Position numbers and translations under genes: made by a program. Under the pieces are notes generated by a model, which was not told where the DNA came from, made no database searches, and saw nothing but the letters and a program-made list of their open reading frames with translations. 64,000 bases of DNA from a virus: UHGV virus genome UHGV-0038492; one strand, written 5' to 3'. Positions 9,421 to 51,028 of this stretch are shown piece by piece; position 1 is the first letter of the stretch, and every line of letters starts with the position of its first letter.

Positions 9421-9462
9421 CTCCTACCCTCTTAGAGGGTAGGAGTAGCACGTTTTTTTTTT
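9421..9462. terminator. bidirectional intrinsic terminator hairpin (CTCCTACCCT / AGGGTAGGAG, 10-bp stem)
   Basis: Perfect 10-bp stem 9421-9430 / 9436-9445 with 5-nt loop; T-run 9453-9462 on plus strand; on the minus strand the stem is followed by GTTATTTATTTTTTT; sits between convergent gene ends 9415 (+) and 9466 (-). Confidence 0.7.
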
Positions 9463-9465
9463 CAC

Positions 9466-9675
9466 TTAGTCTTTTTTGTAGACGATCGCGTTACCGTGCA
9501 GTTTGTTGTTACCGGAAATACCGATAACTTTAAACGCTTCACCGCCGATCTTTTCAGCTTCGACAGCCAGCTTAGCAGTAACGTCGTCTACGGTGTCACC
9601 GAAAGCACTTACGTTACCAATTTTCTTGAACTCTTCAGGAATGTGTTCAGCAGAAGAGAATTCTTTAATAGCCAT
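9466..9675 (-). CDS. DUF1471 (YhcN / BhsA-like) domain protein, 69 aa, no signal peptide
   Basis: C-terminal FKVIGISGNNKLHGNAIVYKK matches the conserved end of enterobacterial DUF1471 proteins (BhsA-like ...TLHGTAVIYK, recalled from memory); N-terminus is hydrophilic with no hydrophobic leader. Confidence 0.6.
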   Translation of the reverse strand: MAIKEFSSAEHIPEEFKKIGNVSAFGDTVDDVTAKLAVEAEKIGGEAFKVIGISGNNKLHGNAIVYKKD

Positions 9676-9735
9676 AGCTACTCTCCAGTTAAAGAAAGGA
9701 AGGACTGTATCGTGTTACAACCAAAGCATAAGATA

Positions 9736-9755
9736 GCTCCTCCCTTCTGGGAGGA
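9736..9755 (-). terminator. candidate hairpin terminator downstream of the 321-aa minus gene
   Basis: 8-bp stem CTCCTCCC / GGGAGGAG with 4-nt loop, about 120 nt past the stop at 9876; weakly U-rich on the minus strand. Confidence 0.3.
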
Positions 9756-9875
9756 GTAGAGTGCGCGAAAAAAGTGGCCTGCTTAACTAAACGATGAGGT
9801 TTAAGAAAAGTGTTGATAAGAAGCTTACCAACGTCAGGTCACAATATATAATACCAACGTAAGAAAAAGGGGAAA

Positions 9876-10841
9876 TTAGCGCGGGCCTGAAGTTGGACCA
9901 TGTACACCGTCGTGGATGTGTACGCTGAAGGTAATACCGGAAATCACCGCATCCTTAACTGTAAAGACGCCCACACCTTCACCCGTACCACCGTATTTGA
10001 AGTTCTTAGCAACTTCCAAATTACCGGTGAACATCGCCTCATTACCTTCTTGCTTAAAGTTCGGCGTTTTATACGTTGTGGAACCAGAGGCTTCGGTTAG
10101 CCACGTTTCTGTTTTAAAGGTAACCGATTTCGACGCTTCGGTATTCCGAACTTCGCATTTCTCATTAATCGTTTTCGTTTCCAGGTTAATCGAACGTTTT
10201 GCGTAAATGAACGCATCTTCTTTGTTGATGTTCACCTTCGAAAGCATCGCGTTCTCAAAACCTAGATCGTCTTCCACCGAGTTAATGTAATACTTATTCC
10301 CTTTATGGTCAACGCACTGCCACGATCCGTTAGCGTTATCGAATTGGAATAACCACGCCGCTTTCTCCCCGTTCACCATGCTTGTTCTTAGGGTAACGTG
10401 TTTGTCAATCGTTGAGACGTTTAACACATACGCGTTCGACAAGTCATCCGCCATCTGGTTTTCAGGGTCAGCAGACCACGCGTAAACCGCATCCTCTAAT
10501 CGCTTAACGTTAGCGAAATTCAAATCAATCCAAAAATAAATATCGGTTTGCCCTAGACGTAGCAAGATAACGTAATCTTCACGCTTAACGTCTGGGGAAT
10601 TAATTCGGTTGGAATTAAACTTCCACCACTTTGCAGTAATCGTGTTACCGGTTTTAATCGTTAGGTTGTCGGTAGCACCCCCGGCTTCGTGTACCTTTTC
10701 AGCGGTTGAGGAAACCGATTGTACAACGGTAGGGTTCGCAAAGTTGGTTTCAATGGGAATAACACTCACCCGATCCGTACCACGAGGTTTATCTTCCGCG
10801 ACGATACCAATCGAGAAAAAGTCAACGCTGGATTTCTCCAT
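9876..10841 (-). CDS. hypothetical protein (321 aa)
   Basis: Track ORF; minus-strand ATG preceded by AAGGAA with 7-nt spacer. Confidence 0.65.
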   Translation of the reverse strand: MEKSSVDFFSIGIVAEDKPRGTDRVSVIPIETNFANPTVVQSVSSTAEKVHEAGGATDNLTIKTGNTITAKWWKFNSNRINSPDVKREDYVILLRLGQTDIYFWIDLNFANVKRLEDAVYAWSADPENQMADDLSNAYVLNVSTIDKHVTLRTSMVNGEKAAWLFQFDNANGSWQCVDHKGNKYYINSVEDDLGFENAMLSKVNINKEDAFIYAKRSINLETKTINEKCEVRNTEASKSVTFKTETWLTEASGSTTYKTPNFKQEGNEAMFTGNLEVAKNFKYGGTGEGVGVFTVKDAVISGITFSVHIHDGVHGPTSGPR

Positions 10842-10895
10842 TAGGTCGTTCCTTAGATCGGAAATGTAATCAGATATATTTTACTTAAGTGAATA

Positions 10896-10920
10896 GGGGC
10901 TGAACTCGCACTTCAGCCCC
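10896..10920. other. 9-bp stem-loop (GGGGCTGAA / TTCAGCCCC) in the divergent intergenic region
   Basis: Perfect 9-bp inverted repeat 10896-10904 / 10912-10920 with 7-nt loop; no adjacent T-run, so more likely a regulatory or processing structure than a terminator. Confidence 0.4.
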
Positions 10921-10973
10921 TATGGGCACGTTTCTTTCGAAACGGAGTTACCACGTGATTAGGAGACAGACCA

Positions 10974-11051
10974 ATGTCTACTGAGAAGAAAAGCGGATTG
11001 AACGAAGTAATCGTACTGTTCAAACGCGACAACCCGGCTATTCCTCGGTAA
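10974..11051 (+). CDS. small ORF (25 aa, MSTEKKSGLNEVIVLFKRDNPAIPR)
   Basis: ATG 10974 preceded by AGGAGA with 7-nt spacer; too short for the track; real-gene status uncertain. Confidence 0.2.
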   Translation: MSTEKKSGLNEVIVLFKRDNPAIPR

Positions 11052-11229
11052 TCATAGTATTACTTAAAATTTACAGATTATCCCTTTATTCTGCTACTCG
11101 GGATACCGGTAGGGGGTAGGGGGCAATATGTATACGGATATAAATAGCGGAGGTATACGTAGTATACCGACATACTCTTCCCAGAGGAACGTAGTGACTT
11201 CCTTATTCCTTTTTAGGAGAATAAACCCC

Positions 11230-11964
11230 ATGAGAGAATTGATTGACGATATCTTTACCAATACCAGTTTAGAACTTTCTTCTACGGTGGTTAACGATCT
11301 AATAGGACAACCGTATCCTGCTAAGTTAATGTCAGTCGGTACCATTAAACCTGAAGATTATCCAGACAATGACATTATCGACTGTATAATTGACGAATAC
11401 ACGATAGCCAGTTACGCCAGTCGGGTCTTCTTTGTTCTTAATAGCGAAACCAGTGTCATTTTAATCTATAAGTTGATTAGTGGTGCTGAACTTGAAGTTG
11501 TAGCCGACCACATTCGTCTTATTGCGAGCACGATTGATGATTTCGCTGATGCGCTTTTTGGAGACAGTTGGCCTTTGCAACCCCTCTTCTCTTACTTCCC
11601 TCTATTTAAACATGGAATAGGGTTAATCCGACATGCAGAAAACCTTCCCGATAACGTAGAGCTATCGCTGCTTGGACCCGGCATCGATCTTTATCCATTA
11701 GAAGACGAGGGCACGCTATATGGTTTGCGCATTTATGTTTCTGTGTTAGAGGGATACCGCGTTATTGAATTGATTGCATCAGATTTAGCAAAACAGATCC
11801 CTGAAGCAGAAACGATTTCTAAAGCCACCCACCTGGTTGAGTTTAACCCAGCCGATCCGTTATTAAAATATCACAAAGAAATTGACATTCGTAAAATCGC
11901 CACGGTAAGAGGGTGGGGTTGTGTTGAGATTACGAATAATAACCTGTTACTAGTACGTAAGTAA
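11230..11964 (+). CDS. hypothetical protein; divergent member of the GW...LLF C-terminal-module paralogue family
   Basis: Track ORF 11128-11964 trimmed to ATG 11230 preceded by AGGAGAATAAA; C-terminus IATVRGWGCVEITNNNLLLVRK aligns with the module of the next three genes. Confidence 0.6.
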   Translation: MRELIDDIFTNTSLELSSTVVNDLIGQPYPAKLMSVGTIKPEDYPDNDIIDCIIDEYTIASYASRVFFVLNSETSVILIYKLISGAELEVVADHIRLIASTIDDFADALFGDSWPLQPLFSYFPLFKHGIGLIRHAENLPDNVELSLLGPGIDLYPLEDEGTLYGLRIYVSVLEGYRVIELIASDLAKQIPEAETISKATHLVEFNPADPLLKYHKEIDIRKIATVRGWGCVEITNNNLLLVRK

Positions 11965-11987
11965 AAAACCTAAAAGGAGAATATACC

Positions 11988-12542
11988 ATGTTTCAAACTG
12001 AACTGAAAAATGAAATTATCCAATCCCTTGAAAAAGGCGTAGGCGAACATTTCTTTGTCTGTCCTTATACTGTACTGACCAATACCATTATTCAGCCAGG
12101 CGCGATGATAGTAGGGGTGAGTGTACAAGCTGTGGAGGAAACCCCGCTGCGTCGCAACATCACTCGTAAAAACCATATTCCATTTAGAACGGGTTTTACA
12201 GATTACTTTCAGAGCTTACTGAAAGATAGCGTTTGGAAAACAGGTAGTTTCTTCCACGAAGGGAAAACATCCACGCTGGTTTATAAAGAGAATACCAAGT
12301 ATCTGGTTGATTTTCTCTTAGCGCGTCAATACGCTTTCTTTCCTTCACCCACCGGTCTCACCCCAGACAATCCGAGTAAGCTGTTAAACCAAGACGAAGC
12401 CGAAGCACTGCGTGCACAACTAAGAAAAGAAGGTTGTGATGTCGATGACTGGGAAACGTTGATCGCAGTCGCTAAAGCACACGGTTGGTATACCGTGCGT
12501 AATCTCGGTCAGCAATTGTTGTTCTTAGCTTACCCTGCTTAA
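11988..12542 (+). CDS. hypothetical protein (184 aa); GW...QLLF module family
   Basis: Track ORF; RBS AAAGGAGAA; C-terminus IAVAKAHGWYTVRNLGQQLLFLAYPA. Confidence 0.75.
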   Translation: MFQTELKNEIIQSLEKGVGEHFFVCPYTVLTNTIIQPGAMIVGVSVQAVEETPLRRNITRKNHIPFRTGFTDYFQSLLKDSVWKTGSFFHEGKTSTLVYKENTKYLVDFLLARQYAFFPSPTGLTPDNPSKLLNQDEAEALRAQLRKEGCDVDDWETLIAVAKAHGWYTVRNLGQQLLFLAYPA

Positions 12543-12571
12543 GTAACGAAAAACCCTAAAGGAGAGTAAAG

Positions 12572-13723: not shown

Positions 13724-13749
13724 TAAGTGAAACTACACTTTCTCTAACT

Positions 13750-13775
13750 GCCGCGCTTTAGTCGCGGCTTTTGTT
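13750..13775 (+). terminator. intrinsic terminator (GCCGCG / CGCGGC stem + TTTTGTT)
   Basis: 6-bp GC stem 13750-13755 / 13763-13768, 7-nt loop, T-rich tail; between genes ending 13723 and starting 13791. Confidence 0.55.
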
Positions 13776-13790
13776 AAGAAGGAAATAGAA

Positions 13791-14564: not shown

Positions 14565-14576
14565 AGAGGTGGTACC

Positions 14577-15155: not shown

Positions 15156-15159
15156 CAAC

Positions 15160-15190
15160 GGTGGGGTGTAAGCCCCACCTTTTATTTTTT
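15160..15190 (+). terminator. intrinsic terminator (GGTGGGG / CCCCACC stem + TTTTATTTTTT)
   Basis: 7-bp stem 15160-15166 / 15173-15179, 6-nt loop, immediately followed by a T-run. Confidence 0.8.
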
Positions 15191-15195
15191 GTTCG

Positions 15196-15226
15196 CTGAC
15201 ATTAAAAATAATCTCAGATATATATT
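15196..15226 (+). promoter_or_regulatory. sigma70-like promoter candidate (-35 CTGACA, 17-bp spacer, -10 TATATA; also contains TATATTAC)
   Basis: CTGACA 15196-15201, 17-nt AT-rich spacer, TATATA 15219-15224; lies between the terminator at 15160-15190 and the first gene of the secreted-protein cluster; the polymerase that would use it is unknown. Confidence 0.35.
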
Positions 15227-15284
15227 ACCTAGGGGAGAGTTAAGATTAACTCTTTTACTTGTTAACCCCACGAGGAGCAAAACA

Positions 15285-18044: not shown

Positions 18045-18052
18045 TTAGCCCG

Positions 18053-18080
18053 GCCCCGCTGTGTACGGGGCTTCTTTTTT
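18053..18080 (+). terminator. intrinsic terminator (GCCCCG / CGGGGC stem + TTCTTTTTTG)
   Basis: 6-bp GC stem, 7-nt loop, T-run. Confidence 0.7.
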
Positions 18081-18713: not shown

Positions 18714-18762
18714 GAGAGAACCTTCGGGTTCTCTCCCTTCTCTTTTATTTTTTTTCTTTTTA
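18714..18762 (+). terminator. intrinsic terminator (GAGAGAACC / GGTTCTCTC stem, TTCG loop, long T-tract)
   Basis: 9-bp stem 18714-18722 / 18727-18735, tetraloop TTCG, followed by CCTTCTCTTTTATTTTTTTTCTTTTT. Confidence 0.85.
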
Positions 18763-22993: not shown

Positions 22994-23484
22994 CGATACT
23001 TCCAGAATCGGATATTGACAACGACCTGTTTAATGCGCCTGAGCGCTTCAAGGTCGTTACGATAAATTGCGTAGGGGCAATGGGTCGGGGTATCGCTTTA
23101 GCGTGCAGAGAACGCTATCCTGGGCTTTATCAGGACTACCGAGAACGTTGCTTCGCTAACGAAATACGAATAGGGAATGTGTATGTTTATCCCGAGGAAA
23201 ACTGCATTCTCTTACCAACCAAAACACATTGGAAACTAAAATCCCAGGTTTCTTATGTTATCGCGGGTATCACCGCGTTGGCAGATGCCGCAGAAAATTT
23301 AGAGGGTGGGGTGGCTTTACCGCCGTTAGGGATGGCTAACGGTTGGTTGACAAAAGCTGAACGTCAACAAATCTTTTTGTTTATCGAAAAGAAACTCGTA
23401 CCGAGGAGACAACATTACCGTTTCTATTTACCCGATACGCTTTACCAAGAAGCAAAACCTTTAATTCCAAACCTTTTTAAATAG
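22987..23484 (+). CDS. putative macro-domain (ADP-ribose binding / hydrolase) protein
   Basis: VVTINCVGAMGRGIALAC resembles the Gly-rich ADP-ribose-binding loop of macro domains and LPPLGMANGW the second conserved Gly motif; alternative start at 22960; assignment is motif-level only. Confidence 0.5.
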   Translation: MLTILPESDIDNDLFNAPERFKVVTINCVGAMGRGIALACRERYPGLYQDYRERCFANEIRIGNVYVYPEENCILLPTKTHWKLKSQVSYVIAGITALADAAENLEGGVALPPLGMANGWLTKAERQQIFLFIEKKLVPRRQHYRFYLPDTLYQEAKPLIPNLFK

Positions 23485-23584
23485 ATATTATCATTAGGGC
23501 ACACAACAAAGGAGTACCAGCTGTCCGCGCCGTGATTTCGTTCTACGGAACACGGAAATGTATAAATCCAACTGGAGAACTAGT

Positions 23585-24783: not shown

Positions 24784-24822
24784 CCCCTAATCCAATCGGA
24801 TTAGGGGTACTTTCATTTATTC
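24784..24822 (+). terminator. hairpin terminator, CCCTA...TAGGG family (CCCCTAATCC / GGATTAGGGG)
   Basis: 10-bp stem 24784-24793 / 24798-24807, 4-nt loop, moderately T-rich tail. Confidence 0.55.
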
Positions 24823-24840
24823 CCCTAAAGGAGCAAAGGT

Positions 24841-26326: not shown

Positions 26327-26360
26327 CCCTACTCCTCCGGGAGTAGGGTTATTCTTTTTT
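26327..26360 (+). terminator. intrinsic terminator, CCCTACTCC family
   Basis: 9-bp stem CCCTACTCC (26327-26335) / GGAGTAGGG (26340-26348), 4-nt loop, followed by TTATTCTTTTTT. Confidence 0.8.
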
Positions 26361-26378: not shown

Positions 26379-26927
26379 ATGTTTCCATCGTCTGAATATT
26401 TAACCCACCTGGCTTACGGTATTCGTCGTGGTTCTGTTTTCCGTACACGTTTAAAGGATATAAATTTCCTGGCTAATTTCTTATTTGACCGTTTGGGAGA
26501 TGGCAATAGCGTTTACAAAAAGATCACCACAACACAACTTTATTCCCTTATAGCAGCGTCTGAAATTGTACCTACAGATATTTGGCGATTCAAACGGTAT
26601 TGCGAGGGAATTACGATCAGTTTTCTTGATCATTCACCGATTACCGTTGAAATCGTCGATCGTGTTGATATTAATAGTGAAGTATCAGGTTGGAAGATTC
26701 TGTTTGATTGTGGCAATCGTTATGCGGTACTTGGTTCTTCTGATGAGCGCGACTTCCCATTCGACAAACCCTACTACTACCTCAACGAAGATGAATTCCC
26801 GGATAAAGAATCCAATATCTTTTTAAACGGGAATACCGTTTACTTCATTTTTCGTACCTGGAACGATGTTGCTGCTATGATTGCTCAAGGCGTCATCGAT
26901 TACCGTAAACTAGAAGTCGACATTTAA
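26379..26927 (+). CDS. hypothetical protein (182 aa); paralogue of the gene at 25374
   Basis: RBS AGGAG; N-terminal similarity to the preceding gene. Confidence 0.75.
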   Translation: MFPSSEYLTHLAYGIRRGSVFRTRLKDINFLANFLFDRLGDGNSVYKKITTTQLYSLIAASEIVPTDIWRFKRYCEGITISFLDHSPITVEIVDRVDINSEVSGWKILFDCGNRYAVLGSSDERDFPFDKPYYYLNEDEFPDKESNIFLNGNTVYFIFRTWNDVAAMIAQGVIDYRKLEVDI

Positions 26928-26937
26928 AATAAAAGCT

Positions 26938-26975
26938 ACCCTACTCCCGAAAAGGAGTAGGGTAATTTCTTTTAG
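26938..26975. terminator. bidirectional terminator, CCCTACTCC family
   Basis: 10-bp stem ACCCTACTCC (26938-26947) / GGAGTAGGGT (26954-26963), 6-nt loop; U-rich flanks on both strands; between convergent gene ends 26927 (+) and 26972 (-). Confidence 0.75.
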
Positions 26976-29960: not shown

Positions 29961-29965
29961 CAACG

Positions 29966-30005
29966 CCTCCTGTACCCTTCGGGGTACAGGAGGTATTTTC
30001 TTTTT
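29966..30005 (+). terminator. intrinsic terminator (CCTCCTGTACCC / GGGTACAGGAGG, TTCG loop)
   Basis: Perfect 12-bp stem 29966-29977 / 29982-29993, followed by TATTTTCTTTTT. Confidence 0.85.
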
Positions 30006-32296: not shown

Positions 32297-32964
32297 TGCT
32301 GATTGTTTTTAGTCAAGCGTTATCGATGGCACCGAGTTATATCCAGATACGCTTTTCAACAATTGCGCGTCAGCAGTGGGGCTTTAAAGCCCCCTATTCT
32401 GACGACCACTATACACTCGGTGAAATAGCACTTGAACTTGCTTTACGTTCATTGTGGGAAATCATCGCATTGTATAATGCGGGTTGTGATATACCGAAAG
32501 ATTGTTTCCCACAACGGGTGATTGCGCAAGGTACTACGAACACTTACGGTAATCCAGCATTGGTAGAAGAGTGCTTAGGCTACGCTAACCAGTCTGGGGA
32601 ACTGCAACACAACTTTAATCTGGTGATTAACAAAGTCTGGAGTGAGCTGGAAAGCTATCCTGAAAAGATTATCTGGTTTGATCGTAACCAATTCGTTAAG
32701 GAGGTGGCCAGTAAACGACCTGTACGTTTAGTTACCTTAAAACCTACCGATCTTGATTTGAAACAAACGTATCCCTTCCCGGAAGAAATTCGACTTTCTC
32801 CCGAAACTGTAGGTCACACTATTTTCAAACAAGGTGACGCCTGGATATTGCCTCACGATCTAGACCGTTTCCTGCTCAATTCCGATCAGATTCACTCCGG
32901 CTATGATTCTCTCGTAAAAGAGTTTCATATCGATCCCTATTTCACTAAAAACTTTCTTAGATAG
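32293..32964 (+). CDS. hypothetical protein (223 aa)
   Basis: Track ORF; start overlaps the preceding stop. Confidence 0.6.
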   Translation: MMLIVFSQALSMAPSYIQIRFSTIARQQWGFKAPYSDDHYTLGEIALELALRSLWEIIALYNAGCDIPKDCFPQRVIAQGTTNTYGNPALVEECLGYANQSGELQHNFNLVINKVWSELESYPEKIIWFDRNQFVKEVASKRPVRLVTLKPTDLDLKQTYPFPEEIRLSPETVGHTIFKQGDAWILPHDLDRFLLNSDQIHSGYDSLVKEFHIDPYFTKNFLR

Positions 32965-33001
32965 ATATTATTCAGGTGTAGAACCCTCGGAGTTAATCAC
33001 C

Positions 33002-35302: not shown

Positions 35303-35333
35303 ACCCTAGCTTCGGCTAGGGTTATTTTATTTT
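35303..35333 (+). terminator. hairpin terminator, CCCTA...TAGGG family (ACCCTAGC / GCTAGGGT, TTCG loop)
   Basis: 8-bp stem 35303-35310 / 35315-35322, followed by TATTTTATTTT. Confidence 0.75.
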
Positions 35334-35355: not shown

Positions 35356-36288
35356 ATGTATTTGTACAAAAGTAAAAAAGTAAAAGGTATTAAAGACTGC
35401 CTTAGACAAATGGGGAGTCAGCATCTAGAAAATGTCATGGAAGAAAACCAAACAAAAGAAAATCCTGTCTCGAAATGGATAAAAAAGAATCGTAACCATT
35501 TAACCAATTCCTTTATACCCTACGACACTGAGTTAGGTCTCAAAGATCCACGTTCCCTTCACGCACAAACGTTGGCAATCGGGTGGCTATATGGCGGGGT
35601 TTCCTTAATATCCAACCAAGCACTTAGAGAACTTGTTTTCGAGACTGAGATGCCCAGTAAATTCCCTGAAGAATGGTTGGACTTTATACCCGCATGGACT
35701 GTGGCAATCGACGTAGGTAAAGAGGATGAGACTTTCTTTCTCGGCTATCGAAAAAATGGGAAGAGAAGGTTTATTATAATCGCTACAAATACTGATTACG
35801 GGTTAACAGAAGGAGTTACCACAATTGCCACTTGTTCGTTAGAGCTTCGTAGTGCAGGGAACGGGCTTGTGGAAATCGACTACGACGACGGTGTGGAGAA
35901 CGAACAAGAAAGGATGTTATGGTTATCTCTGGCCAAAGCCGCCACATCGATGATATTTCTGTGCACGCTAATCCCGCCTAATTACAGGGAGTCTTTTAAT
36001 GATATTAAGTTCAGGGAAATCAAAAAGAACGGTAGTATTAGTTACGACGTTAAACCGCGAGAACGTGATGTTAAGGTAGATATCACACCAGGACAAGTAA
36101 AATATCTAAAAGGATTTAACACCGACTTGAAAGCCATGCAGGGTATCAAACACGCCAAAGCTGCGCACATTCGTCGTGCCCACTGGCGTAGATATTGGGT
36201 TGGCCCAAGAAACGGTGAAAGAAAAAGAAAACTTTGCTGGATTCCACCGACATTTGTCCGAGGCTACGTACCCCACACGCAAGACTAG
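35356..36288 (+). CDS. hypothetical protein (310 aa); HIRRAHW-motif paralogue A
   Basis: RBS AGGAG; C-terminus KAAHIRRAHWRRYWVGP...CWIPPTF. Confidence 0.7.
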   Translation: MYLYKSKKVKGIKDCLRQMGSQHLENVMEENQTKENPVSKWIKKNRNHLTNSFIPYDTELGLKDPRSLHAQTLAIGWLYGGVSLISNQALRELVFETEMPSKFPEEWLDFIPAWTVAIDVGKEDETFFLGYRKNGKRRFIIIATNTDYGLTEGVTTIATCSLELRSAGNGLVEIDYDDGVENEQERMLWLSLAKAATSMIFLCTLIPPNYRESFNDIKFREIKKNGSISYDVKPRERDVKVDITPGQVKYLKGFNTDLKAMQGIKHAKAAHIRRAHWRRYWVGPRNGERKRKLCWIPPTFVRGYVPHTQD

Positions 36289-36298
36289 GAGAATTATA

Positions 36299-37183
36299 AT
36301 GTTAAGACGCAGAATTTATGGAGATACGCTTCGACGTATTAGTGAAGCTATAGAGACTGCACACAAAGACTTGTTTGGTCTGAAAGAAGATCGGTTTCTA
36401 ACGTTTGTCAGGGAACACAAGAGACAACTCCCCGTAACCTTTCTGCCCGTTAACGACCCAACGTACCGTGAGTTCGGCACCACCAAACAGGTGCCGTATT
36501 CTATTCGCCAGTCGTTAGGTTTGGGTTGGCAATACGCAGGTATTGAAATTATCTCTGATAACGAGTTGATGGGATTACTTGCAGACACAGAACGTTTAAC
36601 GGATATTCCGTACGCGTGGATTGAAGCCATCCCATCATTCACCTTTTCCGTGACTGTCAAGATTAATGAACTTCCTGCTACGCTCTTTATCGGTCGTCGT
36701 AAATTCGAAGGTGAAGAAGTATTGTTCGTTTTACGATGGGTGGAGATAAATCAGCGGCACTGTTGGACGACCAAGATTTATCGGTTCAACAGAAAGGCAG
36801 ATGACTTTGTTAGTTTAGAGCCTTACTTTGCTAACGAGTCAAAGGACGAGGAACTTCTGGATGAGGTACATATCGGTTTATATCTTTCCTCGCGGGTGAA
36901 GAAATCGGAACGCGAGAGACGGGAATACCGTGGTAGAACGACACGTTACGTACCTGATACAGAAATCCTTCCACGCAGAGAACCTGTCGTTGTTGACGTA
37001 AGTCCAGTACAACGCGAAGACTTAGAGAAACAACGCAGGGAAGGTAGGAGAATCTGTTTAACGCCGCATCGCGCAGCACACATACGCAGGGCACATTGGA
37101 AACGGGTCTGGTGTGGGCCAATGACAGGACCACGCTGGCAGGAGTGGCGATGGATTGCACCCACCTTTATATCCGGTTTTTAG
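36299..37183 (+). CDS. hypothetical protein (about 294 aa); HIRRAHW-motif paralogue B
   Basis: Track ORF 36176-37183 trimmed to ATG 36299 preceded by AGGAGAA; C-terminus RAAHIRRAHWKRVWCGP...WRWIAPTF; full-length similarity to paralogue A. Confidence 0.7.
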   Translation: MLRRRIYGDTLRRISEAIETAHKDLFGLKEDRFLTFVREHKRQLPVTFLPVNDPTYREFGTTKQVPYSIRQSLGLGWQYAGIEIISDNELMGLLADTERLTDIPYAWIEAIPSFTFSVTVKINELPATLFIGRRKFEGEEVLFVLRWVEINQRHCWTTKIYRFNRKADDFVSLEPYFANESKDEELLDEVHIGLYLSSRVKKSERERREYRGRTTRYVPDTEILPRREPVVVDVSPVQREDLEKQRREGRRICLTPHRAAHIRRAHWKRVWCGPMTGPRWQEWRWIAPTFISGF

Positions 37184-37200
37184 CGTGAAAATAAAGATTA

Positions 37201-37249
37201 CCCCTAGACCACAAGGTCTAGGGGTAGCTTTTACTTTTTATTTTTTGTT
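37201..37249. terminator. bidirectional terminator, CCCTA...TAGGG family (CCCCTAGACC / GGTCTAGGGG)
   Basis: 10-bp stem 37201-37210 / 37215-37224, 4-nt loop, followed by TAGCTTTTACTTTTTATTTTTTG; sits between convergent gene ends. Confidence 0.8.
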
Positions 37250-39908: not shown

Positions 39909-39933
39909 TAGGGTAGGGTAATCCCCTACCCTA
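39909..39933 (+). other. CCCTA/TAGGG-family hairpin in inverted orientation, directly upstream of an RBS, no U-tract
   Basis: 10-bp stem TAGGGTAGGG (39909-39918) / CCCTACCCTA (39924-39933), 5-nt loop; followed by GCTAAGGAG and ATG 39948, not by a T-run. Confidence 0.5.
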
Positions 39934-39947: not shown

Positions 39948-40247
39948 ATGCGTTATCAAACGGAGATTGTGGAACGCTTAAGTGAAGGTTTAGCCAGCGT
40001 CAGCCTGGAAACAGCAGCGGCATTTCGTGAGACTTTCGCTACTTTCTTTCCCGATCGTGAATCTTTTTGTTTAAAGGTCGGTGAATATTATTCCAAGTTA
40101 CTCGAACACTACGGTTATCCGCCGGTGAAATTCGACGTACCTGAAAACACCGACGACATCAGTTATTGGATTGAAACCCTCGAAGCAGGGACACTATCCA
40201 ACTTGCGTAAGGCGGTAGAAAATGAAACTCGATCCAGCGCGGCGTAA
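39948..40247 (+). CDS. hypothetical protein (99 aa)
   Basis: Track ORF; RBS AAGGAG. Confidence 0.6.
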   Translation: MRYQTEIVERLSEGLASVSLETAAAFRETFATFFPDRESFCLKVGEYYSKLLEHYGYPPVKFDVPENTDDISYWIETLEAGTLSNLRKAVENETRSSAA

Positions 40248-40890
40248 AAAAGCAGAAGCTTACGCCTTACAAATCTTAAACCTGGTTGACCCCTCTGGGA
40301 TTAACGCGGAAGCAGCAAAGAAAGCCTTTGCTCGAATGACGGACGAACAGTTTAATCGTCTTCGTGAAGGGCTACCGATTTACAACCCGGTCGGTAGTAA
40401 AGTTAAAATAGACCACATGCGAAACGTTAAGCTTTGTCGTGTTTTAGGTTTGAACCTGGAACAACGGTTGTGGTTAACTGAACCGAAAACGGGTGTTTTC
40501 CATCGTACTCGCTATCCTCATCTGGTGCTACGTTTACCTGCGCGTCGTCAAACACAGATGCAAGAAAAGAAAATGGCGGTAGCGAAGAACGACAAAGTTC
40601 GTGATAAACTCTCCGGTCAGGTTGTTGGTCCTTCTAAAGCATCTGGTGTGTCCTTCCCAGAAGCGTACATCATGTACTCCGATGGTCACGACTGGACACT
40701 GAAAGAGTTTCTGTGGGCGCGTGGGGGTAACGAAGCGTTACAACGTGCGTTCTATCAATCGTTACGTCAAACCGGTAAGGGACGTATTGACCTACCGGGG
40801 GCAGAACGTACCAGTTCAAAAGCAACACGTACCTGGTCTGCGTATCTGAAAGCGATGCACATTGGTAACAACATAGGCCATCCGTCATGA
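40222..40890 (+). CDS. hypothetical protein (222 aa)
   Basis: Track ORF; overlaps the upstream gene by 26 nt. Confidence 0.6.
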   Translation: MKLDPARRKKAEAYALQILNLVDPSGINAEAAKKAFARMTDEQFNRLREGLPIYNPVGSKVKIDHMRNVKLCRVLGLNLEQRLWLTEPKTGVFHRTRYPHLVLRLPARRQTQMQEKKMAVAKNDKVRDKLSGQVVGPSKASGVSFPEAYIMYSDGHDWTLKEFLWARGGNEALQRAFYQSLRQTGKGRIDLPGAERTSSKATRTWSAYLKAMHIGNNIGHPS

Positions 40891-41609
40891 GATTTTCTCG
40901 ACGTTTTTTGATTGATATCGATGCGTTGTTTGACACCCGAATCGGTTGGGTCAAAGCCATCAAACCTGAAAGATTGGAAATTATGGATTACGACGTTTAT
41001 CGTCGTCGTTTTACGGAGGAATGGGCGACTGTCTTGGGGTTTGAGAATTGGAAAGAGGAGTATCAGAAACGCGATAAACGCGCGTTGATGAATGCGGAAC
41101 CCACCGAACTGTTGTTGACGATGAAGAACGAGTTCGAATGCATGTTACTCGAAATCGAGATGCATTCGCCTATCGAAAAACCGACGCTGACGATCAACAC
41201 CTGGCCGTATACTGACCTTACCGACCAAGAAATGCAAACGTTCTTGCAAATGTTCCGTATCTATTACGATATGGTACAGGTTGAGCTAGTGTCGTGGCCA
41301 CATTCGGAACTCACACCAGGTCGTTTAGCGACAGCTTGGGATTGTTGGATAATGTACGATTGGTTCGCTTGGATTGAACTCAATGCGAAACATCTGAAAA
41401 AGCCTATCCCTAGCTTTACCATTACACACCCTGCCCTGCTAACACCGGAACTTACAAAAGAGACGGTAGAGCAGCTTAAACGCGATGGTGTAAATCCATT
41501 CAAGGAACACATCCGGTTTATGGCAGAGTGGGTCGGTGTCGACCCACGTGATTCTGCGTTATTTAGTCTGGCTCGTCCGAAGAAGGACGCGCAAACGCCG
41601 CAGTCATAA
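40887..41609 (+). CDS. hypothetical protein (240 aa)
   Basis: Track ORF; start overlaps the preceding stop. Confidence 0.65.
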   Translation: MRFSRRFLIDIDALFDTRIGWVKAIKPERLEIMDYDVYRRRFTEEWATVLGFENWKEEYQKRDKRALMNAEPTELLLTMKNEFECMLLEIEMHSPIEKPTLTINTWPYTDLTDQEMQTFLQMFRIYYDMVQVELVSWPHSELTPGRLATAWDCWIMYDWFAWIELNAKHLKKPIPSFTITHPALLTPELTKETVEQLKRDGVNPFKEHIRFMAEWVGVDPRDSALFSLARPKKDAQTPQS

Positions 41610-42027
41610 TGGACTTCACGTCAATTTGTTCGCCAACCGGAGCCAACTCCCCTTCCGAGATTTCGACGTTAGGAATGTCTGGAAGGGTGGGTTGGTAACT
41701 ATTATTTTCATCAGGTTCTTCGTCGTGACGTTTTATTTTCACGTTGCCACGCTGCATCAGAATCGTATTCAGTGCGTTAGCCAAGTCTTGGTTCGCTTCA
41801 CTGTTTTTCTGGGCAGCAGCAACACGACGTTTAGAAATGATTTGCTTATCTAGGTCGTTTAATAACGTCCCGATACGATCCACGGTCTTTAAGTCTTTGT
41901 GAGCATTAGGATCGTCTAAGATTAAATTGACAATTCTGACACGGGCTTGTTGCGTTTGGCGGAGAAGCGATTCTTCGTCGTCTACTTCACCATCTAACGC
42001 CTGGTATTTCACTTCTTCTTCAGCCAT
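41563..42027 (-). CDS. hypothetical acidic protein (154 aa)
   Basis: Minus-strand ATG preceded by GAGGTGG; 3-prime end overlaps the convergent plus gene by 47 nt. Confidence 0.55.
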   Translation of the reverse strand: MAEEEVKYQALDGEVDDEESLLRQTQQARVRIVNLILDDPNAHKDLKTVDRIGTLLNDLDKQIISKRRVAAAQKNSEANQDLANALNTILMQRGNVKIKRHDEEPDENNSYQPTLPDIPNVEISEGELAPVGEQIDVKSIMTAAFARPSSDEPD

Positions 42028-42099
42028 TTAAAACCACCTCATTTTCAAAAAGAAGTCAGACAGATATTATTTACGTGAGACATTCTTTCGGAGTGAATT

Positions 42100-42648
42100 A
42101 TGTTTACAGGATTAATAACGCGTTTTAAGAAACGTCTACAGCAAAAGCGTTTACAGGCTCTCAGAGAGTCTCTAAGGCAGGAGTTTCATAAGAACATCCA
42201 TAACCCCTACGTGAGAACGTTTAGCGGCTTACGGTTGCTTACGTTACCTATAAACGTAGATACCGAACCCTACCACCCCAGCTTACGTGGTAATCTCGAG
42301 TTACGTATCGCTAATCTCGATATTCTTTACCAACGTCTTGGTTTTTATATCAACGAATACCAACGCACGATTAACGGCACGTCTATCGAGTGGTTATCCC
42401 TGCCAGAGTCGTTAAGTAAGCAAAAAGACTCATCAGAAAACCGCTGGTTAGACACTTATTTTGGGACGTCCAATCCGGCGGTTGCCTATTATAAGCTAAC
42501 GCAGTTACTCGAGCTTATCGAACCTTACGAAGATATTTTCTTAAAGCCCAAGACCGATGAAGATCGGGCATTGGTGAATCACTGTGCACATTTGTTTCGT
42601 GAAATGGAGGTACTCATCGAACACTACCTTTTAAACCGACCTGTTTAA
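42100..42648 (+). CDS. hypothetical protein (182 aa)
   Basis: Track ORF. Confidence 0.65.
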   Translation: MFTGLITRFKKRLQQKRLQALRESLRQEFHKNIHNPYVRTFSGLRLLTLPINVDTEPYHPSLRGNLELRIANLDILYQRLGFYINEYQRTINGTSIEWLSLPESLSKQKDSSENRWLDTYFGTSNPAVAYYKLTQLLELIEPYEDIFLKPKTDEDRALVNHCAHLFREMEVLIEHYLLNRPV

Positions 42649-46256: not shown

Positions 46257-46261
46257 CACCT

Positions 46262-46300
46262 ACCCTACTCCTGTCTGGGAGTAGGGTATTTTCATTTTTT
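46262..46300 (+). terminator. intrinsic terminator, CCCTACTCC family
   Basis: 10-bp stem ACCCTACTCC (46262-46271) / GGAGTAGGGT (46278-46287), 6-nt loop, followed by ATTTTCATTTTTT. Confidence 0.8.
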
Positions 46301-46320
46301 ACCCTAAAGGAGAATTTACC

Positions 46321-46689: not shown

Positions 46690-46750
46690 TTTTTACAGTT
46701 GGGAACAGACTTATGTCTCCCCGAACTACATTCAAGCGGAGAAAACGATT

Positions 46751-47299: not shown

Positions 47300-47313
47300 A
47301 TCGGGTATCGGAA

Positions 47314-47859
47314 ATGAAACAAATACAGTTAACTGATCACGTTAATGCGTTTAAACACTTTCTGGATAACGCGGGTATAAAACCCGGCGAACAGACAGAC
47401 GCATGGACTGCACGTGTTTACGGAAGTATCGGCAAAGTCTGTGAATCCACGACGACACACGACGGGTTGTTTGTTGCTAAAGCAGTAGGTATTGCCTTGT
47501 GGGATATTGTCGCTCTAGTTTACGTGATGAATAACGGGGATTTACGTCCCCTTGAAAAATCACTGCACCGACTACTAGCCATTAAGAAATGGAAAAATGA
47601 ACATCCTGAGTCAATCGCGGTTACGTTGATGCCAGAAGCGGTACTTGCTATCAAAGCGGTACGAAGTTGTACCGCTCGCGCACAAATGGAGCGGCGTCTA
47701 CATCTCGCGACGCTCTTTTATCAATTGGCCAGAATTGTAAAGATGAACGGCCTAATCTTCGACCGGGTTCTACAGAACGGACGTATAAGTTGGACAGAAG
47801 AACTAAGTAGTTCTCCGTTCTATACAAAACTAAAACTTAAAGACATTTTGAAGGATTAA
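47314..47859 (+). CDS. hypothetical protein (181 aa)
   Basis: Track ORF. Confidence 0.65.
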   Translation: MKQIQLTDHVNAFKHFLDNAGIKPGEQTDAWTARVYGSIGKVCESTTTHDGLFVAKAVGIALWDIVALVYVMNNGDLRPLEKSLHRLLAIKKWKNEHPESIAVTLMPEAVLAIKAVRSCTARAQMERRLHLATLFYQLARIVKMNGLIFDRVLQNGRISWTEELSSSPFYTKLKLKDILKD

Positions 47860-47860
47860 C

Positions 47861-48169
47861 ATGGAAAACTATTCGGGTTGGGCAATTTCGCAGTGCATTG
47901 GCTATTCTTTACGTTCTTTAGTGCGTACACTTTATAACAAAAACTCGGGTGAAAGCATTTCACCACAGTTACTGGGCAAATTGGAAGTCGAAGTTAACCA
48001 CAAATTAAAACAGTTACTCGACAGCCACGTAAGAACATTGCGTTGGGAGTTTTTGTTACGTGGTAAAAAGCCGTCAATTACCGTTGTAGCAGAAGGCAGT
48101 GAAATCGTTCTCCAATCCAACGCAGACCTGTTTGAAATTTTAACTGAACTAGAAAAGGACAAAATCTGA
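47861..48169 (+). CDS. hypothetical protein (102 aa)
   Basis: Track ORF. Confidence 0.6.
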
Positions 48170-49209
48170 TGAAACAGTATTTAGCATTAATGCAAGACAT
48201 TCTGGATAACGGTGTTGTCAAGAAAGATCGTACAGGCGTAGGGACACTTTCTGTGTTTGGTCGTCAACTACGTTTTGACCTGAAAGAAGGTTTCCCATTA
48301 GTTACTACGAAAAAGGTTCACCTGAAAAGTATCATTCACGAACTACTGTGGTTCTTAGACGGTGACACTAATGTGAAGTACCTGCAAGAGAACGGGGTAA
48401 AAATCTGGAACGAATGGGCGAATGAAGAAGGGGAATTAGGTCCTGTCTACGGACAACAGTGGCGGGAATGGATGGACACCAAAATGCTTTATCTTTGGGA
48501 CGAGCGTAGTAAAGACGTGTTGAGAAAGCGGGGATATCACTACATTGGGACTATTGCAGAGGACAACCCTGAAGAAAGTATCGTTATTTATAGCAAATCT
48601 CACGACCAGATCAGCAAAGTCATCCAACAACTTCGTGAAGATCCTGACTCCCGCCGTATTATTGTTAGTTCCTGGAACGTAAGTGATCTGGACGATATGG
48701 CACTTAACCCGTGTCACAACTACTTCCAATTCTACACAACGGAAATGTCACTACTTGAGAGACTGGAATGGTACGAAGTAAACGAACCGGAAAAAATTGC
48801 GAGCGCACCGCTTATTAAACACGAAGATATTGATGATGAAGAACGACTTCATGTAACTTTAGATCGTGAAGGTATTCCGCGTCGTAAACTTTCGTGTTTC
48901 TTCCTGATGCGATCAAATGACGTGTTCTTAGGTTTACCGTTCAACATCGCTTCGTACGCGTTGTTAACACACATCGTTGCTCAACAACTGAACATGGTTC
49001 CAGACGAACTTGTTTACAGTGGTGTAGATGTCCATCTGTACTCTAACCATCTGGAGCAAGCAAAACTTCAGCTTACACGCGAACCTTACCCGTTACCTAA
49101 ACTCGTTATCAAACGTAAACCTGATTCTATCTTCGAATACAAATACGAAGACTTCGAATTAGTCGGCTATCAAGCTCATCCACATATTGCGGCCCCTGTC
49201 GCGGTTTAA
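48169..49209 (+). CDS. thyA: thymidylate synthase (ThyA family) with two insertions; could alternatively be a dUMP hydroxymethylase
   Basis: Near-identical to bacterial ThyA in the conserved blocks: [51 protein letters not shown], catalytic [29 protein letters not shown]-terminal PVAV; about 35-aa and 45-aa insertions relative to E. coli ThyA (recalled from memory). Confidence 0.9.
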
Positions 49210-49239
49210 ATTACCACCTAATTAAAAGGGTATGATAAA

Positions 49240-49686
49240 ATGTCTAAAACTCATGTTAACTATAACATCGTAGTAGAAGAATTATCAAAAGGTTTAACCG
49301 ATCTGGATTCTAAAGATAACCCGTTTACCGAACGTTATGGTCCCAATGCTTTATCTGAATTTCGTACTATCCGCTACGGTACAGGCAGACAGATGGGGCT
49401 TACAGACTTTGCTGTTGAATTAGCTAAGAACCATAAAGGGAAAGTGTTGTTCGTTAACCCAAAAGGGTTCTTAGAAGACGATGTGCTATTCCGTTTGGGT
49501 CTCGAAGAATTACCGGAGAATATCACACAAATCAGCGGTTACCAAATGGGTACAGAAAAAGAAAAATACAGCCTTGTCATTGTAGACGACGCTGGGGTTT
49601 TCTTTAGCATGTTCCGTTACATGAAGTTCTTCCGCTTACTTGCAAACTCAGTAACTAAAGACGTTGTAATCCATTTAATGGGTTAA
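49240..49686 (+). CDS. hypothetical protein (148 aa)
   Basis: Track ORF. Confidence 0.6.
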   Translation: MSKTHVNYNIVVEELSKGLTDLDSKDNPFTERYGPNALSEFRTIRYGTGRQMGLTDFAVELAKNHKGKVLFVNPKGFLEDDVLFRLGLEELPENITQISGYQMGTEKEKYSLVIVDDAGVFFSMFRYMKFFRLLANSVTKDVVIHLMG

Positions 49687-49717
49687 TTAGAACCTATCAC
49701 ATTCGAGTGGAAATCTA

Positions 49718-49942
49718 ATGAAGAAGCCACGCTTTCACAGCCTGAGATACTTTACAGGTACTCTATATTTTATTGGCTACAACCGTGTACGTAAGGGTCC
49801 TGGTAAATCGAAGATGCGCATCGTGCGATATAAAGAAACGCCGCCAGGTCTAGCACCGATGGCGAAACTTCTGTCGCCGTTCGCTAACCTTAATATCAAA
49901 ACTGTTAACCCCTTTGTAAGAAATTTGGAAACTAAAAAATGA
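49718..49942 (+). CDS. small basic ORF (74 aa)
   Basis: Track ORF; weak RBS; real-gene status uncertain. Confidence 0.3.
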   Translation: MKKPRFHSLRYFTGTLYFIGYNRVRKGPGKSKMRIVRYKETPPGLAPMAKLLSPFANLNIKTVNPFVRNLETKK

Positions 49943-50082
49943 CTGAAGAAGTTAAAGTAGAAACCGTTAAAGAAACTGACGAATTTGCAATCCCTGGCTT
50001 AGACCCGGAAGCGACCGTAGAGAAGGGTGCTGACCCAACTACGGAAGACGATAACTGCTCAGGCGGGGCTTGCAAAATTTAA
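49939..50082 (+). CDS. small acidic ORF (47 aa, ends ...DDNCSGGACKI)
   Basis: ATG overlaps the preceding stop (ATGA); followed by a terminator hairpin; too short for the track. Confidence 0.3.
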   Translation: MTEEVKVETVKETDEFAIPGLDPEATVEKGADPTTEDDNCSGGACKI

Positions 50083-50090
50083 CAGTTCAC

Positions 50091-50130
50091 GGGGTGCTTA
50101 TGTAGCACCCCTAATCATTATTCTTTTTTT
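50091..50130 (+). terminator. hairpin terminator (GGGGTGCT / AGCACCCC)
   Basis: 8-bp stem 50091-50098 / 50104-50111; T-run TTCTTTTTTTG about 10 nt downstream. Confidence 0.6.
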
Positions 50131-50152
50131 GTTAATCTAATGGAGTTTTAGA

Positions 50153-50983
50153 ATGGGCGAACGTTTTGACATCAACGCTATTTACAACATCGTAGTTAAT
50201 CCTGGTCAACACCTGGAAGAAGTTAACGCACAACTGCGTGCTCTGAATGAGAAGGCAATACAGTTCGACGCCATTTACACAATCGGTGTAAACCCTGGTA
50301 CCAGTCGTATTCGCGTGGAAGGTAAACGACACACCGGCACTCAAGAACTGGACATCGAAACGATTGAAGCACCGATTAAACTTACCGACGCCGTTTATAA
50401 CGGTACGGTAATGCACACCGTGTCGGTTCCGGTCTATTCTATTGCGAACTGTGCAGAACATGTTAAAGGCTGGTCTAAAGAACGCGGCATCCTCGATAAC
50501 GGTAAACTGGAAACTCAAATCACGAAATTCTTTGAAGAGTTTGGTGAAATCGCAACAGGTATCAGTAAAAACAAACCTGAACTGATCATGGATGGCATCG
50601 GTGATGCGTTAGTGGTTTTAGTGAACATCCTGGAACTGGGTAAAGACAAACTGTCTGGTGAAATGACAACCGCTGAAATCATCGAGCACGGTTTACAATT
50701 GCAGGTAGATGATGTCGCTGACGTTGAAGAACGTTTTGATGACAACGGGTATCCGCACCATTTGTATCTCCACGCTACCGAAATCTTCGCTACCGCATTT
50801 ATTCGCTCCGATGCTGGGTTCGATCAACTTAACTGGGCTTTGTACCGCCTTGCGAAACTGGCTCTCTACTATCGTCTTGACATTCGTCATTGTTTCTCTC
50901 TAGCCTGGCACGAAATCAAAGACCGTAAAGGCTATCTGAACGCTGACGGTATCTTTGTAAAAGAAGCAGATTTGGCGAAATAA
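50153..50983 (+). CDS. MazG-like nucleoside triphosphate pyrophosphohydrolase with N-terminal extension (276 aa)
   Basis: ITKFFEEFGEIATGI ... DGIGDALVVLVNILE ... AWHEIKDRKG resemble the MazG EExxE / D-loop helices. Confidence 0.7.
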   Translation: MGERFDINAIYNIVVNPGQHLEEVNAQLRALNEKAIQFDAIYTIGVNPGTSRIRVEGKRHTGTQELDIETIEAPIKLTDAVYNGTVMHTVSVPVYSIANCAEHVKGWSKERGILDNGKLETQITKFFEEFGEIATGISKNKPELIMDGIGDALVVLVNILELGKDKLSGEMTTAEIIEHGLQLQVDDVADVEERFDDNGYPHHLYLHATEIFATAFIRSDAGFDQLNWALYRLAKLALYYRLDIRHCFSLAWHEIKDRKGYLNADGIFVKEADLAK

Positions 50984-50991
50984 ATAAAAGT

Positions 50992-51028
50992 ACCTACCTC
51001 CGAAAGGAGGTAGGTTAACTTTCTTTTT
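50992..51028. terminator. bidirectional terminator (ACCTACCTCC / GGAGGTAGGT, GAAA loop)
   Basis: 10-bp stem 50992-51001 / 51006-51015, followed by TAACTTTCTTTTTTTTCTTTTTTT; U-rich on the other strand as well; between convergent gene ends 50983 (+) and 51038 (-). Confidence 0.85.

Follow-up and report, generated by a model that had tools for sequence, protein, structure and literature searches.

Terminator Families of Giant Phages and the Present Genome

Giant phages that transcribe with their own multisubunit RNA polymerases can carry dozens of terminators per genome that share a stem sequence. In phiKZ, ONT-cappable-seq mapped 133 termination regions (Putzeys et al. 2024, PMC10914365), and 61 terminators share a conserved stem-loop and tail, BCCYCCCC...GGGRRGGB-YTTAT (PMC10914365). 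For 201phi2-1, 132 termination sites were reported, 59 of them with a motif A that resembles the phiKZ motif, and the eight terminators tested in vivo were all reported to be strong (8/8; PMC11512511). A second precedent is provided by the PeSL of T4-type phages, repeated cassettes of promoter plus stem-loop that flank variable genes and recombine (PMC2839356, PMC4122927). Here, we analyzed a 64-kb stretch of the virus genome UHGV-0038492 (45.7% G+C; hereafter, the window) and a family of intergenic hairpins within it. An earlier note on this DNA had described these hairpins as CCCTA...TAGGG stems and had suggested, from sequence conservation beyond the needs of a terminator, an additional role as protein-binding, RNA-processing, or recombination sites. 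We find that they are very probably the phage's intrinsic (factor-independent) transcription terminators and 3′-end hairpins. Shared-sequence terminators are already known from phiKZ and 201phi2-1; what is new here is their SPN3US-like version.

The window belongs to an SPN3US-like jumbo phage. It is syntenic at ∼73–76% nucleotide identity with three Erwinia phages (phiEaH2, Stratton, and Asesino) and, at a greater distance, with SPN3US of Salmonella, and protein comparison of the window's open reading frames (ORFs) confirmed gene-by-gene synteny with phiEaH2 and SPN3US. No close match was found among deposited phages, and the relatives at 78–97% identity are exclusively metagenome contigs in IMG/VR. 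Three ORFs (61028..62653, 62654..64000, and 40222..40890) share 78–87% protein identity with genes of phiEaH2 and/or SPN3US that their depositors annotated as RNA polymerase beta subunit. By this homology, the window phage, like phiKZ and 201phi2-1, would encode phiKZ-like multisubunit RNA polymerases. Unlike those two phages, in which 3′ ends have been mapped, it belongs to the SPN3US-like clade with enterobacterial hosts. The literature on terminators or stem-loops of SPN3US and phiEaH2 yielded nothing specific to these hairpins.

A Stem Sequence Shared Beyond Base Composition

All nine hairpins listed earlier (9421, 24784, 26327, 26938, 35303, 37201, 39909, 46262, and 50992) are present with perfect stems (Table 1; in the text, hairpins are named by the first position of the core stem, which is 26937, 37199, and 46261 for the three listed at 26938, 37201, and 46262). 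They form a sequence family and not a structural class alone. The motif CCCTA-N6-22-TAGGG matches the window 7 times against 0.32 matches expected from base composition, with none of 100 shuffles reaching 7, and 6 of the 7 matches are the intergenic hairpins. We also shuffled the arms of the 13 strong terminator-like stems of the window, defined as perfect, at least 8 bp long, with at least four G/C pairs and an A- or T-tract. CCCTA occurred in 7 of the 13 against 0.79 expected (0/3000 shuffles reached the observed count), and CCTA occurred in 9 against 1.37. The hairpins are also the largest direct-repeat family of the window. The claim of a family thus stands, but its uniform description does not: the stems at 9421 and 50992 are built on CCTAC/GTAGG rather than CCCTA, and the stem at 39909 has the opposite polarity. 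Among hairpins that the earlier list lacked, the one at 29966 belongs to the C-first class, and the one at 9737, with a perfect 8-bp stem and a poor T-tract in the minus-strand terminator scan, is a possible weak member of it. Five further terminator-like hairpins (13750, 15160, 18052, 18714, and 50091) are G-first and fall outside the CCCTA type.

Comparison with related phages, a check that had been proposed, recovered the same stem family in phiEaH2, SPN3US, and the IMG/VR relatives. Whole-genome scans returned terminator-like hairpins with perfect stems, 43 of them in phiEaH2 and 49 in SPN3US, many of which draw on a common stem vocabulary (TACCTACTCC, CTACCCACTCC, ACCCTACTCC, CCCTCTTACC, and CCTACCTCCC). 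By arm shuffling, CCTAC is present in 11 of the 43 phiEaH2 stems against 1.7 expected; enrichment in SPN3US is weaker. The exact stem ACCCTACTCC/GGAGTAGGGT has 36 copies in IMG/VR, with diverse loops and neighbors, and most of them lie within 220–250-kb SPN3US-like contigs or fragments thereof. Three copies of the ACCCTACTCC stem occur in phiEaH2, two each in SPN3US and Huxley, and up to five in some uncultured relatives.

Anatomy and Placement at Gene Ends

The stem-loop, the tail, and the placement at gene ends together make up the anatomy of an intrinsic terminator. The stems are perfect, G+C-rich, and 8–12 bp long, and the loops measure 3–6 nt and are often cUUCGg or GAAA. Predicted RNA folding energies range from −15 to −27 kcal/mol (z-scores of −3.1 to −7.5 against shuffles), and the hairpins rank at the top of terminator scans of the window. 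Each starts 4–15 nt past the upstream stop codon and, at co-directional genes, ends 14–54 nt before the next start. As previously noted, most are followed by U-tracts: a T-rich tail lies 3′ of the stem on the transcribed strand in eight of the nine, the exception being 39909. Several had also been called bidirectional, and we count four. The non-overlapping convergent junctions 9415/9466, 26927/26972, 37183/37238, and 50983/51038 all carry a hairpin (9421, 26937, 37199, and 50992, respectively; 4/4), with an A-tract before it and a T-tract after it. A T-rich tract is thereby present on both strands, so that a single palindrome serves both directions of transcription.

Canonical bacterial Rho-independent terminators likewise combine a G+C-rich stem-loop with a U-tract at gene ends, and bidirectional ones have A- and T-tracts. 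They share structure and not sequence, whereas the window hairpins reuse one stem vocabulary with a skewed polarity. A search against all Rfam families at gathering thresholds gave zero matches anywhere in the window. REP/RAYT-like elements, with their GTAG motif, would be a poorer fit than terminators to stems that are short and perfect, carry T-tracts, and stand at the ends of genes.

A Clade-Wide Style of Hairpin Arms

In the window and the related genomes, many terminators share a C/pyrimidine-rich 5′ arm and a G/purine-rich 3′ arm, the former typically composed of C, T, and A without G and the latter of G, A, and T. G-free 5′ arms were counted in 6/12 stems of the window (C-first to G-first, 9:3), 18/46 in phiEaH2 (25:20), 21/47 in SPN3US (36:9), and 2/13 in the first 50 kb of phiKZ (9:2), compared with 4/62 in 1 Mb of unrelated IMG/VR viral loci (27:31). 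Against these unrelated loci, the excess of G-free arms has Fisher P values of 8e-4 for the window, 5e-5 for phiEaH2, and 4e-6 for SPN3US. Where a hairpin has both A- and T-tracts, the skew is strongest, with 24 C-first and 3 G-first.

The terminators of phiKZ and 201phi2-1 have the same arm polarity, short loops that are often TTCG, T-rich tails, and copies between convergent genes that are bidirectional. Stems such as ACCCTCC-ttcg-GGAGGGT and GCCCTCCC...GGGAGGGC are typical of phiKZ. The window stems differ in being TA-interrupted, of the ACCCTACTCC type, whereas phiKZ stems follow CCYCCCC. A TTAT-like tail start, as in the phiKZ motif, is found at 26327 (GGGTTATTC), 35303 (GGGTTATTTTATTTT), and 29966 (GGTATTTTC) and is absent or shifted at the other hairpins.

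The hairpins very probably follow a stem style that phiKZ-related giant phages, which transcribe with their own multisubunit RNA polymerases, have in common. The SPN3US-like consensus is roughly (T)ACC(C/T)(T/C)AC(T)CC-loop-GGAG(T)(G/A)(G/A)GGT(A), and CCCTA...TAGGG (CCCTA/CCTAC) is the local version favored in this lineage. The shared style could mirror what the phage polymerases terminate on best. Similarity could also be maintained by hairpins that are copied along with gene cassettes, and template switching between the arms could keep the stems perfect while flipping the loops.

Several points weigh against this reading. That transcripts end at the hairpins is something we infer from the mapped 3′ ends of phiKZ and 201phi2-1. 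The 39909 hairpin has no T-tract on the transcribed strand and is doubtful as a plus-strand terminator. In two further scans, exact 8–10-bp stems recurred at background level in unrelated viral contigs, because one hairpin arm alone is independent; recurrence alone is therefore weak evidence. For the exact-stem IMG/VR matches, we place the weight on concentration in the family and on the within-genome tests. G-first terminators account for 20 of 45 in phiEaH2, which makes polarity a tendency that is strict for the bidirectional hairpins only. Finally, the phiKZ consensus BCCYCCCCHWWDGGGRRGGBYTTATKYYGT has 0 matches in the window at ≤3 mismatches. With polarity, loop types, and T-rich tails alike but this consensus unmatched, we regard the hairpins as this clade's own form of something already known and not as the literal phiKZ motif. 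The relation to phiKZ terminators is one of style, not sequence identity.

C-first and G-first stems were also considered as markers of late and early transcription units. This was rejected; C-first hairpins commonly precede an early-promoter-like motif in phiEaH2 and SPN3US.

Selection on Pairing, Stem Turnover, and Loop Flips

Orthologous sites showed strong purifying selection on pairing together with compensated stem turnover. In alignments of relatives that are 78–87% identical overall, a hand count found 1 substitution in ∼214 arm positions. The orthologous hairpins of phiEaH2 and SPN3US have stems that differ from those of the window, are perfectly paired in each genome, and use the same vocabulary, as the series at 9421, 37199, and 50992 illustrate (Table 1). 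The family has no invariant position and no fixed spacing, and both stem and loop lengths vary. Compensated stems without an invariant position argue for selection on pairing plus a compositional style, and they weigh against a site that a protein would bind sequence-specifically.

At six hairpins (24784, 26327, 26937, 37199, 39909, and 46261), the loop is flipped in at least one relative that is 85–97% identical to the window: it is replaced by its reverse complement, exact or one base off, with the stem and flanks unchanged. In one relative (L021), AATC becomes GATT at 24784, TCCG becomes CGGA at 26327, and CGAAAA becomes TTTTCG at 26937; the last loop is TTCG in L009 and TTCT in L024, again between constant stem and flanks. 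At 37199, ACAA is replaced by its reverse complement TTGT in three relatives 91–97% identical; at 39909, TAATC becomes GATTA in L158; and at 46261, TGTCTG becomes TAGACA in L025 and L022 and TGACTA in L029. Two or more independent contigs support each loop orientation at 37199 and 46261, so that assembly error is an unlikely cause. No flips were seen for TTCG or GAAA loops. None were seen in the isolate pairs phiEaH2/Stratton, phiEaH2/Asesino, and SPN3US/SEGD1, in which many loops are TTCG and of which two are too similar to inform.

The flips suggest frequent template switching between hairpin arms. Template switching at short inverted repeats is known to invert spacers and to homogenize arms (PMC8794818, PMC8604942). 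In the minute loop inversions described there, the loop is likewise reverse-complemented while the arms remain unchanged and complementary, and changes are compensated in one step. We found no description of such inversions for phage terminators in the literature, and the mechanism is hypothetical here. The window encodes SbcC-like and UvsX-like proteins, identified by homology to annotated relatives; that these take part in loop flipping is speculation.

Additional Roles and Alternative Explanations

Among the additional roles listed in the earlier note, recombination alone gained support, which is circumstantial and unproven and comes from hairpin-bracketed cassettes. Besides ending transcription, the hairpins could be portable PeSL-like recombination linkers whose 25–35 nt of shared sequence let bracketed cassettes insert, delete, or swap, a possibility that we regard as tentative. 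Its clearest case is the sole large indel between Asesino and phiEaH2 in the 50 kb compared, a 966-nt stretch with the gp235 gene. This gene lies between two TACCCACTCC hairpin copies in Asesino, phiEaH2 has a single copy, and the Asesino/phiEaH2 alignments overlap by 34 nt that are the hairpin. In the window, gene 26379..26927, which lacks a homologue in phiEaH2 or SPN3US, is bracketed by two CCCTACTCC-stem hairpins, and a cassette at 35356..37183 lies between the ACCCTAGC and TACCCCTAGACC hairpins. The first gene of that cassette (35356..36288) is a 29%-identical homologue of Asesino gp235 in the same place and is also hairpin-flanked. Moreover, 6/9 hairpins abut lineage-specific genes (those without a homologue in phiEaH2 or SPN3US), hairpins stand at 7/14 block borders versus 9/∼51 other junctions (P ∼0.03, a rough count), and a 29-nt module of tail plus ribosome-binding site is 90% shared between 24805 and 46284.

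However, only one case of two copies versus one is clean, and the indel at window 49689 relative to L006 and L025, which involves a small ORF, has no hairpin at its borders. Hairpins also occupy the conserved junctions at 9421, 39909, and 50992, and the homology is far shorter than the ∼100 bp of PeSL. Acquisition of a gene together with its terminator from a related phage would, furthermore, look alike without any crossover at the hairpin.

The likeness to PeSL (Arbiol et al. 2010, PMC2839356; Comeau et al. 2014, PMC4122927) lies in repeated intergenic stem-loop terminators beside variable orphan genes, with one clear two-copies-versus-one gene case (Asesino versus phiEaH2), two suggestive cases in the window, and one counter-example. 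In phiEaH2 and SPN3US, hairpin and T-tract are often followed by an early-promoter-like motif, forming a terminator–promoter composite; in contrast, such a motif adjoins none of the nine hairpins of the window. The shared sequence in the window comprises hairpin plus tail, about 25–35 nt (at most 44) versus ∼100 bp, and its stems are C-first, whereas those of PeSL are GGGG...CCCC. The promoters would be for the phage polymerase and not for sigma-70. Minicircles formed between neighboring copies are a further mark of PeSL. It is conceivable, although we would not count on it, that terminator hairpins in SPN3US-like giant phages act both as cassette crossover points, analogous to PeSL, and as hotspots of arm-to-arm template switching. 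Such hotspots may flip loops at a rate comparable to point substitution while the stems are kept perfect, and the phage's own SbcCD-like hairpin nuclease and its UvsX-like recombinase might take part.

Some further observations concern the same junctions. The module at 24805-24833 and 46284-46312 reads GGGTAyTTTCATTTwTTmCCCTAAAGGAG, and the two junctions are unrelated. In phiEaH2 and SPN3US, the tail of the 46261 site is likewise retained, despite downstream genes without detectable similarity. At window 49687-49717, relatives (L025 5184-5343; L006) carry an extra ORF of ∼150 nt that has no counterpart in the window.

Recognition of the stem by a sequence-specific protein, such as a phage antiterminator, a factor for termination or processing, or a regulator that binds DNA, would also explain the conservation. 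The sharing exceeds composition, the arm polarity is clade-specific and absent from unrelated viral DNA, the same 10-bp stem occurs at non-orthologous sites in several genera, and the authors of the 201phi2-1 study speculate on antitermination (PMC11512511). We nevertheless consider such a protein unlikely, and the proposal of a protein-binding site gained no support. No position is invariant family-wide, orthologous sites differ with compensation (37199 and 50992 series), stems vary within 8–12 bp and loops within 3–8 nt, and G-first terminators coexist in the same genomes. Loops often differ or invert between close relatives with nothing else changed, which is hard to reconcile with either a dimeric protein bound to double-stranded DNA or recognition of the loop. 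The excess over base composition that underlay the argument for an extra role is real, but the argument itself is weakened by the occurrence of the same phenomenon in the mapped terminators of related giant phages.

Slightly less plausible still is that the hairpins are RNA-processing sites, or 3′-end stabilizers that block exonucleases after read-through, and do not stop the polymerase. The very stable stems with cUUCGg or GAAA loops would suit this function, as would the 39909 hairpin, which lacks a T-tract and lies 3 nt ahead of a Shine–Dalgarno sequence. However, a pure stabilizer needs neither the T-rich tails found in 8/9 hairpins nor the symmetric A/T tracts at the four convergent junctions. 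In phiKZ and 201phi2-1, primary 3′ ends have been mapped to hairpins built in the same style, and the eight 201phi2-1 terminators tested work in a reporter assay. The suggestion of an RNA-processing site gained no support. That the shared CCCTA/TAGGG merely reflects base composition, or arose by chance among stems rich in G+C, is highly improbable: the arms are tied, leaving ∼10 independent nt, identical stems recur at background in unrelated viral contigs, and the looser CCTA...TAGG is barely enriched window-wide (15 matches versus 8.4 expected), but the CCCTA-N6-22-TAGGG count and the arm-shuffle test refute it, and ACCCTACTCC copies concentrate in SPN3US-like contigs.

Read as intrinsic terminators, the hairpins bring the enterobacterial SPN3US/Erskinevirus branch under an observation that came from 3′-end mapping in giant phages of Pseudomonas. 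Viruses with their own multisubunit RNA polymerases would then have terminators that share a sequence style and not the fold alone, to which we add a simple testable rule, a G-free 5′ arm that is strict at bidirectional sites. In practical terms, Table 1 can support the annotation of transcription units in this phage group, as a list of putative strong and compact terminators of which many are bidirectional, and offers a handle on the termination requirements of these unusual polymerases. The hairpin-bracketed cassettes and loop flips bear on accessory-gene exchange in giant phages and are leads only so far.

Table 1. Putative terminator hairpins of the window and other elements discussed in the text (predicted folding energies in kcal/mol, z-scores in parentheses)
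Position	Strand	Element	Context	Energy (z)	Orthologous site (phiEaH2; SPN3US)	Loop flipped in relatives
9421..9445	.	Bidirectional terminator hairpin CTCCTACCCTC-tta-GAGGGTAGGAG, perfect 11-bp stem	Between convergent 7937..9415(+) and 9466..9675(-); 5 nt past stop codon; A-tract upstream, T10 downstream	-20.1 (-5.1)	CTCCTACTCCC; ACCCTACTCCC	
9737..9756	-	C-first hairpin CTCCTCCC-ttct-GGGAGGAG	Between two minus-strand genes			
11107-11185		Conserved non-coding element: G5-N2-G5, TATGTAT, GCGGA-GGT, covarying hairpin, ACC-GACATCC			Common to both	
13750..13768	+	G-first terminator-like hairpin GCCGCG...CGCGGC + T-tract	Terminator scan			
15160..15179	+	G-first terminator hairpin GGTGGGGT-gtaa-GCCCCACC + T-tract	Early-promoter-like motif next, at 15214			
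18052..18072	+	G-first terminator-like hairpin GGCCCCG...CGGGGCT + T-tract	Terminator scan			
18714..18735	+	G-first terminator hairpin GAGAGAACC-ttcg-GGTTCTCTC	Perfect stem and terminator scan		TGGAGACC-ttcg; TGGAACCC-ttcg	
24784..24807	+	Terminator hairpin CCCCTAATCC-aatc-GGATTAGGGG	6 nt past stop codon; T-rich tail, then ribosome-binding site of lineage-specific gene	-20.6 (-5.3)		24796-24799
26327..26348	+	Terminator hairpin CCCTACTCC-tccg-GGAGTAGGG	Starts 8 nt past stop codon; left border of lineage-specific gene 26379..26927			26336-26339
26937..26964	.	Bidirectional terminator TACCCTACTCC-cgaaaa-GGAGTAGGGTA, stem extended by A/U pairs	Convergent junction; right border of gene 26379..26927; 9 and 7 nt from its two flanking stop codons	-21 (-6.0)	CTACCTACTCC in both	26948-26953
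29965..29994	+	Terminator hairpin (G)CCTCCTGTACCC-ttcg-GGGTACAGGAGG(T)	C-first class	-27.1 (-6.4)	Same-site hairpins in both	
35303..35322	+	Terminator hairpin ACCCTAGC-ttcg-GCTAGGGT	Starts 5 nt past stop codon; within lineage-specific four-gene block; stem and TTCG loop identical in L159, L161			
37198..37227	.	Bidirectional terminator (T)TACCCCTAGACC-acaa-GGTCTAGGGGTA(G)	Convergent junction; right border of lineage-specific block	-26.6 (-7.5)	CTACCCACTCC; TACCCACTCCC	37211-37214
39909..39933	.	Hairpin TAGGGTAGGG-taatc-CCCTACCCTA, G-rich 5′ arm	A-tract upstream, no downstream T-tract; Shine–Dalgarno sequence 3 nt beyond	-22 (-4.6)	GGGCGGG-gaaa-CCCGCCC with T-tract in both	39919-39923
46261..46288	+	Terminator hairpin TACCCTACTCC-tgtctg-GGAGTAGGGTA	4 nt past stop codon; precedes lineage-specific four-gene block		CCCTCTCC in both	46272-46277
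50091..50111	+	G-first hairpin GGGGTGCT-tatgt-AGCACCCC, T-rich tail				
50992..51015	.	Bidirectional terminator ACCTACCTCC-gaaa-GGAGGTAGGT	Convergent junction	-21.8 (-5.7)	CGAGTAGCCC; CGAGTACCCC	
L172 38860-39925 vs phiEaH2 111429-111463		Asesino gp235 cassette				

Neighboring Elements and Genes

A tandem TAGGGGG repeat at 11110 had been thought to carry the same half-site as the hairpins, a proposal that did not survive comparison. In the orthologous intergenic regions (TGGGGGACCGGGGG in phiEaH2 and CGGGGGTAAGGGGG in SPN3US), the element takes the form GGGGG-N2-4-GGGGG, and the G-runs alone are conserved. Downstream of the G-runs, each genome has GCGGA-GGT, a covarying 6–7-bp stem (GGTATAC/GTATACC, GGTGAC/GTCACC, and GGTATCC/GGATACC), and ACC-GACATCC. 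The tandem belongs to a separate conserved non-coding element, in which TAGGG is incidental and which could be a promoter or a structure of the 5′ untranslated region. The first ATG of ORF 11128..11964 lies within this element, so its start was probably called too early.

An AT-rich motif, TCAGATAnATwTTAC(y)TAGGTGA, occurs at 10870-10892, 15214-15236, and 42056-42078, with weaker copies at 23474-23491 and 32954-32971, and phiEaH2 and SPN3US have six to seven copies each. Usually a small stem-loop, variable in sequence, comes immediately after the motif (in the window, 10893-10923 and 15236-15253), and in the relatives it the motif often lies 20–30 nt past a terminator. In the window, TCAGATAnATwTTAC was found at 10870, 15214, and 42056 only, none of which adjoins the nine hairpins. 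The motif is probably the early promoter of the virion polymerase together with a 5′ hairpin.

The minus-strand gene 41563..42027 overlaps the 3′ end of 40887..41609 by 47 nt and is 60% identical to SPN3US gp046. A split gene at 41744..42648 is apparent only: the phiEaH2 RefSeq record has an over-long plus-strand call (gp142) there, and the window carries the usual 41563..42027(-). Window-wide, TATG/CATA is strongly depleted (observed/expected 0.54), nearly to the degree of CTAG (0.43). The late promoter of phiKZ-type phages includes TATG, and its depletion could reflect avoidance of spurious promoters.

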